Below are positions 25,722 through 28,700 of a stretch of 64,000 bases of DNA, one piece after another. Positions within the stretch are counted from its first letter, which is position 1. Each line of letters opens with the position of its first letter. Source of the DNA: Stylophora pistillata (lineage: Eukaryota); NCBI RefSeq assembly GCF_002571385.2, contig NW_019218244.1:1-64000 (forward strand), written 5' to 3'. Position numbers and translations under genes: made by a program. The notes below the pieces were generated by a model. It ran no database searches and was not told the origin of the DNA. It saw nothing but the letters and a program-made list of their open reading frames with translations.

Positions 25722-28700
25722 ATGGCTGTTGATCCGAATTACTTGACGAATATGTATGAAACCTCTCCACTGGTGAATGACAACTGCACCACATTCAGAG
25801 AGAAGTACAACCATTGGTAGGTGGATATCTAAATCAAAATATTAAAATCATTTAAGAATGTAAATCGATTATCATTTCAGATACGGAATTTGGCATGTAG
25901 CGAAAATCAGCGCTATCTACTGCTATCTATTACTTAAATAGCGCTATCTACTGCGAAGATCGTGCATCATATGTATCTAATACCGCAGTACAAAATATAT
26001 GAACTTCATATATTTCATTGTATCTTAAATGTGTTATAATTGTAATATTATTAGCACAATATTATTATTCGATTTTCAATAGCTACACGAAAATCGCTCA
26101 AGATGTTGAAGATAATCAAGCTGTAACACACATGAAACCCCCAATATCAGATGAAGCCATGTCGGTATCCAGCTCTACTGATGATTCGGCTGCTGCCGCT
26201 GCGGTGTTTCGACATCTAGGTGAGAAGATGTTATACATGTGCGTTATTAACCAAGCTTGTTCGGTCAAGATAGCTGGATATTGCATTGGCTGAGTTCTTT
26301 TTTTTTTTTTGCATTTTTATGTGCCGAGATGAAGTCGAGGTCCATAGAAATGCGAAAAAAGAACGAGGCTAACATCCAGCCATCTTGACCGAACAAGCTT
26401 GGTTAATGAAAGATTTGTTACGTCATGCACGATCCTTCGCAGTAGATAGCGCTACTGCGAAGGATCGTGCATCATACTTATTTAATACGGCAGTTCATAA
26501 TATATGAACTTCATATATTCATTGTACCAAAGATTTGTTGTATTGCAAAAAGACTTGGCTTTTTTGAGAATTAAGATATGACTTGTTCACTTCGAACGCC
26601 GGGAAAGAAAGTCAACTGTGTTTGTAGCGCAACAATCTCACAAGAGTCGTTTCTGTTTTCTTTGTTTTGACTATCCTTTGCTGCTTTTTGCATTTCCATC
26701 GTCGAAATTTTCCACGAATTAGGAACGTAGTTCTAATTCTATTTTTTCATGCGCGGGATAAATGCCGGCAATCCCGAGAAGCCAAGATAAGCCCATCTTT
26801 CCCGCTCGGTTAGCCAATCAGAACACAGGATTCGCTTCATCTTGCCCACGGCGCTGTGAGCGATGTAATAAATTTTGATATCAATTATTACCAAAAAATG
26901 TATTATTTCGGCTATTCGGTTCTCTGACACCACGCCAACACTTTCCATATTTCTGAAGCATCATGACTGCCTTTCTCGCCCGGTTCACTGATTTTCTCAT
27001 AAGCTCTTTTGTCGTTCAATATTATCACCACCGTTCCTATCACTATCATCGTTGTTGTTATTATCGTTATTATTATCATTATTTTTGTCATTGTTATCAA
27101 TTTCCACATATGTGACAACGTCGCTTAAAACACTTTTGTGTAATACTTGCGGATTTCATTTTCAGGGTAGAGGAACGGTCCAGTGAGGAAGGAGCCGTAG
27201 GGAAATGACATGAAAGGAGATGAAGGGAAAGACAAACACGATACAAATAAAATGCAAGCTAAAAAATCAAACAAGAAGATGATATTTTGTATGACGTGTT
27301 CATCTCCTTTTAACTTCCCTTTTGAGTGATAGATGATTCAGTCCTACCGGCTCCTACTTGAATCAAAACTGTGCTTTGCATATCCTGTAGGTTTCTGATC
27401 TTCCCTCTGCATAAGGACAGAATTATAACATTTTTCACCGTTCTTGAGAAGCATTTACACTTCATCAATGTTCTTTTTGCTCCCACAGATAACCTTGTGC
27501 GTGATAGAGTAAACGGAGAACTTGAAAAACTTAAACATAATGTGCATAGAATCCTGTCCGATCAACAACAAGATTTTGCGCAGGCTTTTGGGCTCCACGA
27601 TGAACTTTCTTCTTCGGAGGTAAATTTTAAGACTGCAGACTTAATCCACGCTTAAAATATGACGACGGAAACACTCAGAGAGCAGAAGAATTTATCTGTG
27701 GAAGCAGTGAGTTACTGACTCATATCGTCATTTCTCTCTTTTTCGAAAAGGCTCTAATGACTGTTTTCTTCTAAAGTGGTCTAAGTTACACCACCCATTG
27801 AAAGTGGTGAGTTTCAGACAAGAGAACCCTGATATAGAGAACCCCCCAAAACCTGTAGTGAAAAGCATATTTTCCGTCACGAGAAGGGCCTAACTCATCT
27901 GAACAATATAGCTTTAAATGAAAATGATGAAAAAGAAAAAAAATTAAAATAGACATAACAATTAACAGAGCTTTTCATTTGATTTATAACTTTTTGTGTT
28001 CAGGCTTCGGCATCCCATGTTGTCCCCCAAAATAACCGTGGTGACGACACAAGCTCAGGTAGGTGAACGCACGTCACAATGTGTTATCATCGTGTTTAAA
28101 ATTATCTGTTAACCTCAATAGAAGGTATACACATTGCAAACTGACTGACCCTTTTCTTTCCCGACAGATGGGTGTCAGTTTCTGGTGGAGGGTGACTCTG
28201 ATTGTGATGCTGCAATAGTTAGGTAGTAAGTGGCTTTCTGAATAATGCACCTTAGCTCATTTACTTTCTGCCTATTGCCGTTTCTTTGTTGTCCCTACTG
28301 AGCTGAATAACTGAATTGCTGTCCATATAGAGTGAATAAAGCAGGAAATGCTGGTGATGAGTTCTGGCTGATGCGTGTTAAAATAAGAATTATGAGTAAT
28401 GACAATCTCTTGGAACCCCATAGTGGCGGCTTCCACTAAGCTCTAAGCTTTCTATTCCACTAGAATAAATGCAATACTATACTCCCGTTTTGTGAAAATT
28501 TGTCCAAGAGCATGAGATATTAGAACCTTGACCCGGGGGGAAGCTTCGCTCCCGTACGAAACTGGAGTCTAAATGTCCTAATCCGACTTGAGATTAAGCG
28601 TCTTTAATTATAGCTTTCTACTGCAATTTCCATTGTTTTATGACTATCAATGGTTACGCTAGACTTCAAAACTGACCTCATTTACTTCTTTTCTTTTAAC

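Follow-up and report, generated by a model that had tools for sequence, protein, structure and literature searches.

Which enzyme placed a 109-nt sequence, made of two opposed pieces of one tRNA-bearing repeat, into an older repeat of the coral Stylophora pistillata, and is the family from which it comes an ordinary SINE? The locus lies at 26409-26539 of the window, by which we mean the whole 64,000-nt stretch of contig NW_019218244.1 that was analysed. SINEs are usually taught to ride on LINEs, and the passengers of Penelope-type elements (PLEs) in animals to be hammerhead-bearing retrozymes; a tRNA-bearing, ribozyme-free PLE passenger would widen both concepts. The original prediction proposed that the family may be tRNA-derived and PLE-dependent, and our analysis finds this one likely to be a SINE-like passenger of a Penelope-type enzyme rather than of a LINE.

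The insert and its family

The insert comprises 109 nt (26420-26528), carries no poly-A and is flanked by two copies of AAAGATTTGTT (26409-26419 and 26529-26539). It opens with 33 nt that match unit positions 166-199 in inverted orientation, and the remainder is a forward copy of positions 173-248, in a numbering where window position 7582 is position 1 of the family unit and 7833 is position 252. The host repeat was compared with 11 further copies: ten of them contain the 11-nt target segment once and the eleventh carries a short duplication of its own, with two of the set apparently being one contig seen twice. None of 500 mismatched flank pairs gives a repeat of at least 10 nt. As the segment is single in those ten copies, the AAAGATTTGTT duplication arose on insertion. 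The stretch at 26420-26528 is a real insertion of a real, recently active family, and the layout proposed for it, with an inverted self-copy ahead, an 11-bp target-site duplication and no poly-A, is borne out. The sibling copy at 25898, invoked alongside it, does begin with an inverted 13-mer (25898-25910), but it shows no flank repeat of at least 6 nt and does not end at the fixed short site described below, and therefore lends weak support.

26244..26840, unstranded: older host repeat that received the element, presumably MITE-like by its 37-nt inverted arms
26409..26419, + strand: left copy of the target-site duplication, 11 nt
26420..26452, - strand: short-site arm, unit 166-199 inverted, its outer end being the fixed short start site
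26452..26528, + strand: long-site arm, unit 173-248, with the ~50-nt tail that includes an AT-rich hairpin
26529..26539, + strand: right copy of the target-site duplication
25898..26025, + strand: sibling copy, with the inverted 13-mer, filler and unit 152-250; duplication not found

The family unit is 251-252 nt long and occurs in dispersed head-to-tail arrays, with units 97-99% identical. There are thousands of copies in the genome, where two exact patterns match 1,681 and 4,001 times and the reversed patterns 0 times; the assembly measures 398 Mb, with many gaps, and may homogenise array interiors. Units differ at 0.5 positions within arrays versus 3.1 between them, and among 43 arrays of this gapped assembly 54 variants occur in all units, 8 in some and 30 singly, four arrays being mosaic for one indel. 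Neither the tandem unit nor the fixed start of the inverted arm had been part of the original prediction.

7549..7833, + strand: full 252-nt unit (7582-7833) with 33 nt of the preceding unit; single arm, duplication not found
7635..7708, + strand: tRNA-like module, unit 54-127, AGT anticodon, boxes A and B
7711..7717, + strand: T7 run, Pol III terminator-like, in the loop of a conserved hairpin
7701..7833, + strand: structured module 3' of the tRNA with four conserved helices; short start site near 7781, long one near 7831

ARAGORN calls the tRNA-like module Thr-AGT, the Rfam tRNA model scores it at 48.3 bits, and boxes A and B are intact. Since it is equally alike, at 50/73 identical positions, to host Thr, Lys, Arg and His genes (tRNA genes at 30 loci), its parent tRNA cannot be named. 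In each of the 67 units inspected, the tRNA-like part is followed at a distance of 2 nt by a run of at least six T (T6-10). The four helices that follow are kept across subfamilies that are 78-100% alike: 92.5% of cells are paired, more than in any of 500 shuffles, and slid partners pair at 34-46%. Double changes occur in three pairs, on the basis of 11 related sequences, and this count did not beat shuffles, 188 of 500 of which reach it.

Older subfamilies (L220, L233, L260, L281, L306 and L309) are 78-86% alike and keep the helices, some with a GGT anticodon; the two-arm layout is found in L220, L233 and L260 too, so that the strategy is old in this lineage. Elsewhere, a second, unrelated tRNA-like repeat (L142:2400-2700, L457, L458) has the same box A with a different anticodon arm and tail, and tRNA genes with encoded CCA ends sit on short contigs (L313, L324, L335, L336) of possibly bacterial sequence. 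In annotation, tRNA-bearing arrays inflate coral tRNA gene counts, and they cause fold-back mis-assemblies.

Insertion anatomy and its controls

Two divergent arms are present in 82 of the 118 family insertions resolved over three samples (69%); the remaining 36 do not show this layout, and in many of them a duplication is absent. The first sample, 43 insertions from the first 100 pattern matches classed by eye, with eight excluded for N at an outer end and three for assembly joins or mirroring, yielded two divergent arms in 28 of 32 insertions, 22 with an exact 11-14-nt duplication. The second, 36 loci picked on the inner core and likewise classed by eye, with seven excluded for N, two as duplicates and one as complex, yielded them in 17 of 27. 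In the third, with 75 further loci classified automatically, 37 of 59 resolved insertions are two-armed, 32 of the 37 with one short and one long end, and a duplication of at least 10 nt accompanies 29 of the 37 and 7 of the 22 others.

The outer ends are fixed. In all 42 curated two-arm insertions with a duplication, a set that includes the insert at 26409-26539 and in which two rows mis-placed by the script (an arm swap and an internal deletion) were read by eye, the short end falls at unit 196-202, and the long end either at 245-252 or within the first 6 nt of the following unit. The outer ends of the two arms lie ~50 nt apart in the unit and the inner ends vary; either arm can be the longer one, 0-3 target bases usually continue the template, and the duplications measure 11-14 nt in 38 of the 42, with 24% G+C. 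The arms overlap in sequence in 16/16 short insertions, and those of one insertion share 61 of 175 variant sites versus 3.3% (maximum 8.0%) in 1,000 shuffles, from which it follows that both were copied from the same template type. Copies are tandem or partial-tandem with 5' truncation, and arms span as many as nine units, with the unit sequence kept throughout, 141 of 305 being longer than one unit and 61 longer than two. A pile of arm ends at unit 218-219 results from the palindromic hairpin.

The autonomous PLEs of this genome encode a reverse transcriptase followed by GIY-YIG and carry a hammerhead in their end repeat. Among their insertions, six with two arms have 11-14-nt duplications, and the tails of these, which differ by family, measure about 20, 32, 43, 43, 84 and 98 nt; the duplication length of the tRNA-bearing family matches that of the resident PLEs (11-14 nt, eight insertions). 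The window holds the following members and, for comparison, the end of a LINE:

12360..16014, + strand: broken autonomous-type PLE of family F1, with two arms, a 47-nt tail on the inverted arm, a 14-nt duplication and hammerhead cores at 15909 (+) and 12514 (-)
13678..14031, + strand: "hammerhead copy B", an end fragment of PLE family F5 that has two arms, an 11-nt duplication and a tail of ~60-67 nt
1525..2387, unstranded: "hammerhead copy A", an F5 end fragment inside a probable assembly mirror
33208-33700: 3' end of the young control LINE, with an (AAT)n tail

The layout of the insert had also been claimed for this PLE and for hammerhead copies A and B. The 14-nt duplication of the PLE and the 11-nt one of copy B are confirmed, whereas the 10-nt one of copy A (1525-1534 and 2378-2387) spans a 1,427-nt perfect palindrome and an N, and is probably part of an assembly mirror. 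The idea that copies A and B were passengers in their own right did not hold, both being end fragments of the autonomous family F5. The palindrome itself (923-2350) is followed by the single N and then by the missing tail of the F5 fragment, and is a probable mirror caused by the two-arm insertion. The PLE at 12360-16014 carries an F5 end fragment within its reverse transcriptase frame and presumably lies in an intron of a glycosyltransferase-like gene (ORFs 9550-16880). A young family, F2 (L120-L128, L139, L140), encodes a protein segment that is identical between nine contigs, and has an open stretch of 893 aa, a hammerhead and a 43-nt tail. The window also contains another fold-back tandem repeat at 32192-33098, whose three tandem units of 224 nt carry inverted arms of 90 nt on the outside, and minus-strand fragments at 49979-51666 and 61343-63038 that we take, by their motifs, to resemble LTR-retrotransposon pol genes.

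As a negative control we used a young LINE, presumably of L2/CR1 type by its protein. None of its 30 loci has an inverted arm, 18 of them with a resolved 5' end (0/18), a result that concerns a single LINE family, itself a LINE and not a LINE-partnered SINE, and inversions from within 1.5 kb. Compared with this LINE, the 69% in the family came out as the original prediction had anticipated. The LINE's 3' tail, the one LINE tail compared, has no likeness to the unit end, so that the LINE-tail match named beforehand as counter-evidence was not seen.

According to the available text, an anole PLE protein cuts and extends both strands in vitro, starting at two internal RNA sites whose spacing equals the genomic tail (PMC11167929), and inverted arms, partial tandems and a one-sided tail are marks of PLEs (Craig et al., 10.1101/2021.04.23.441226). 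The family fits both in all aspects of its geometry, which suggests that one cDNA is primed per site from two nicks. Given the geometry of the 118 resolved insertions, with their two-armed majority, fixed ends and PLE-like duplications, together with the positive PLE and negative young LINE controls, PLE dependence is well supported, and the family is likely mobilised by the PLE enzyme class.

Mechanism, template and rival explanations

With comparable confidence, we propose that a PLE enzyme would have reverse-transcribed and integrated a non-coding, tRNA-bearing tandem element of 251 nt, the insert being one of its short copies with two arms. The template RNA is predicted to start at the tRNA-like promoter and to read through the terminator. 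A PLE protein, probably a dimer, would nick both strands ~12 nt apart. Each nick would prime at one of the RNA's two internal sites (unit ~200 and ~250), pairing with it over 0-3 nt; the hairpin module may set these sites. Both cDNAs would then extend toward the RNA 5' end, covering however many units they manage, and end joining would link them head to head.

The source of the RNA is the least certain step of this mechanism. The claim of a Pol III family stands as far as the intact boxes A and B go, but it is not established, as both sites at which reverse transcription starts lie downstream of the T6-10 run and arm 5' ends are modestly enriched at the tRNA. The T run in 67/67 units, together with the 61 of 305 arms that exceed two units, is difficult to reconcile with Pol III. 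At the tRNA start, unit 50-56, arm 5' ends number 8 versus 3.6 expected in the first sample and 5 versus 2.1-2.4 in a pre-registered replicate that is not significant alone (p=0.06-0.09), which makes 13 versus 5.7 for both (~twofold); in a wider interval chosen afterwards, unit 46-59, they number 23 versus 11.1 expected, out of 249. These numbers hint at the tRNA as the point where some templates begin. Cleavage in the anticodon loop was dropped as a candidate, the cluster of 5' ends at unit 85-89 having failed to replicate (0 observed). Six RNA runs contain 70-85% of the family's words and three give thousands of contigs, which sum over all copies and carry no information on strand, ends and level. 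Linear multimers that Pol III would initiate and terminate leakily have nearly an even chance of being the template; Pol II read-through, with or without RNase P trimming, is rather unlikely, and unit-length circles are a still more doubtful source. Circles are shown for retrozymes (PMC7229834; 10.64898/2026.07.22.740005) and multimeric transcripts are proposed for the SINE-like repeats of schistosomes (PMC6765202), in the available portions of these works. For the choice between circle and linear multimer, the homogeneity of the arrays, four of them nevertheless mosaic for one indel, is not decisive on a gapped assembly.

An autonomous partner that shares the family's 3' end, for which the original prediction called, was not found among about eleven PLE families. 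By BLAST and local alignment, the unit has no sequence in common with the ends of these families other than nested copies of the family itself; they were sampled from 70 sequences fetched out of 150 scored endonuclease matches (1,590 candidates) and from two protein searches, with the Naiad/Hydra, hammerhead-free clades outside the sample. A few loose alignments between unit and PLEs reach shuffle p values of 0-0.05 among 31 tests and are anchored on the 5' half of the hammerhead in F1 and F2. Known PLE passengers usually resemble the end of their partner, in the available text of two studies (10.1101/2021.04.23.441226; 10.64898/2026.07.22.740005). The unit might accordingly be the pLTR of an unsampled autonomous PLE, such as a hammerhead-free Naiad or Hydra element, and its copies truncated insertions. 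The F5 fragments that had passed for hammerhead copies are exactly of this kind, Naiads, which lack hammerheads, are present in corals (10.1101/2021.04.23.441226; 10.64898/2026.07.22.740005, as far as their available text goes), and the 150 candidates scored are a fraction of the 1,590. Yet arms stay within the unit for up to nine units, and no junction sequence recurs among the 79 non-family sequences that adjoin arm 5' ends. In a protein screen that used the clades already sampled, a co-oriented PLE frame is directly joined, without PLE continuing beyond the insert, at one of the 79 (L381:400-1480; G000:C169), where an inverted F5 long-site arm, the F5 frame, four shared bases and a family arm from unit 46 follow one another; there is no duplication, F5 does not resume after the family arm, and the locus may be a chimera or a deletion between neighbours. 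With no PLE reading frame regularly joined upstream, the pLTR outcome that had been named as counter-evidence was not seen, and we regard it as improbable.

Two further explanations dispense with a PLE and fare worse. Were the family an ordinary LINE-partnered tRNA SINE, its fold-backs would come from twin priming as in mammalian L1, and the intact boxes A and B, the duplications of ~12 nt and the inverted 5' segment would suit it. Twin priming yields variable, non-overlapping segments, whereas the inverted arm here starts from one fixed site and overlaps the other arm in every short insertion, on which ground twin priming is rejected; the mid-unit tRNA, the arrays, the absence of a poly-A or simple-repeat tail and, for the one LINE family compared, the unmatched tail and the 0/18 inversions also speak against a LINE partner, which we consider very improbable. 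The lowest probability, slight as that of the LINE partner already is, goes to a model without any RNA step, with the family as a DNA-level element or a tRNA satellite and with fold-back repair, slippage or assembly error behind its spread. Homogeneous arrays and the mirror artefacts of the assembly (923-2349; L086) are what it would lead one to expect. Against it stand copies scattered across many contigs, with 3' ends that are fixed and 5' ends that vary, arms of unequal length and long duplications whose flanks are unique, as well as the empty-site comparison.

The PLE-passenger explanation is compatible with one more reading, which concerns origin: the family may descend from a retrozyme whose hammerhead unit gained the tRNA module and lost ribozyme function, the core persisting as a base-paired stem. 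On neither strand does the unit contain a CUGANGA core followed downstream by GAAA. Rfam, which also missed the real PLE hammerheads of the window, finds no hammerhead in it, and neither does an nhmmer profile of a rough hammerhead alignment, run with no positive control; a core-scoring script separated real hammerheads from shuffles poorly. Unit 173-188 does align with the 5' half of the F1 and F2 hammerheads, one A missing, an older subfamily has GAAAC at the matching 3' place, and a Pol III promoter and a hammerhead are combined in schistosome repeats. Set against this, the ancestry of unit 173-213 is not significant, 80 of 1,000 shuffles aligning as well, stem II is not kept, and the short start site would fall within the relic, a site that in PLE families lies ~50-170 nt downstream of the core. 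We consider retrozyme descent unlikely, if well worth keeping in mind.

Comparison with known systems

In this section, statements about published systems refer to the available portions of the cited texts. The family resembles GIY-YIG PLEs (10.1101/2021.04.23.441226; PMC11167929) in its partial tandems, inverted 5'-truncated arm, tail at one end, two internal starts and AT-rich targets, and differs from them in having no reading frame, no hammerhead, a tRNA-like module, a ~50-nt tail and no sequence in common with the sampled PLE ends. Like the non-LTR retrozymes of animals (PMC7229834; 10.64898/2026.07.22.740005), which also occur in corals, it consists of dispersed, non-coding tandem units of similar size, with long duplications and a proposed dependence on PLEs. 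Retrozymes, however, are defined by a type I hammerhead in each unit, which the family lacks, and are often homologous to PLE ends, a match that the family does not show among about eleven PLE families.

The SINE-like hammerhead repeats of schistosomes (PMC6765202) likewise have a Pol III-type promoter inside the tandem unit. These carry an active hammerhead, and the available text names no PLE partner or two-arm signature for them; the family, by contrast, has no hammerhead and a strong T run after the tRNA-like part. Non-autonomous Chlamys PLEs such as MRC1 (10.1101/2021.04.23.441226) are similarly non-coding, belong to a hammerhead-free clade and form head-to-tail multicopy insertions, but they generally resemble their partner at the 3' end, and the accessible parts of the paper mention no tRNA module. 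With tRNA-derived SINEs, including the V-, Deu- and MetaSINEs of cnidarians (PMC4824008), the family shares boxes A and B, short length, non-coding nature and high copy number; there the tRNA head comes first and the LINE-derived tail last, whereas here the tRNA lies mid-unit, the fixed ends are internal and the copies are two-armed multimers.

To speak of a new system, as the original prediction did, is too strong, since both non-coding PLE passengers (retrozymes, MRC1) and Pol III hammerhead tandem repeats (schistosomes) are in print. A tRNA-bearing, ribozyme-free PLE passenger is not described in the literature searched, nor in the accessible parts of PMC4824008, PMC8969392, PMC2888827, PMC2872659 and PMC12070523; an entry in Repbase or Dfam as a SINE or unknown repeat is possible. 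Tentatively, the family may represent a distinct class of Penelope parasite, in which the tRNA module would replace the hammerhead, Pol III read-through or RNase P would generate the template's 5' end, and an independently evolved hairpin module would direct the two start sites with no helper sequence; if so, such elements would be true SINE counterparts for PLEs. The family offers a natural template of 250 nt with thousands of recorded insertions for asking how PLE enzymes select their two start sites and assemble two arms; each insertion uses one short and one long site, and both of its arms derive from the same type of template. It works like the passengers of PLEs and yet stands outside the retrozymes, by its lack of a hammerhead, and outside the LINE-partnered SINEs, by its mid-unit tRNA and internal fixed ends.
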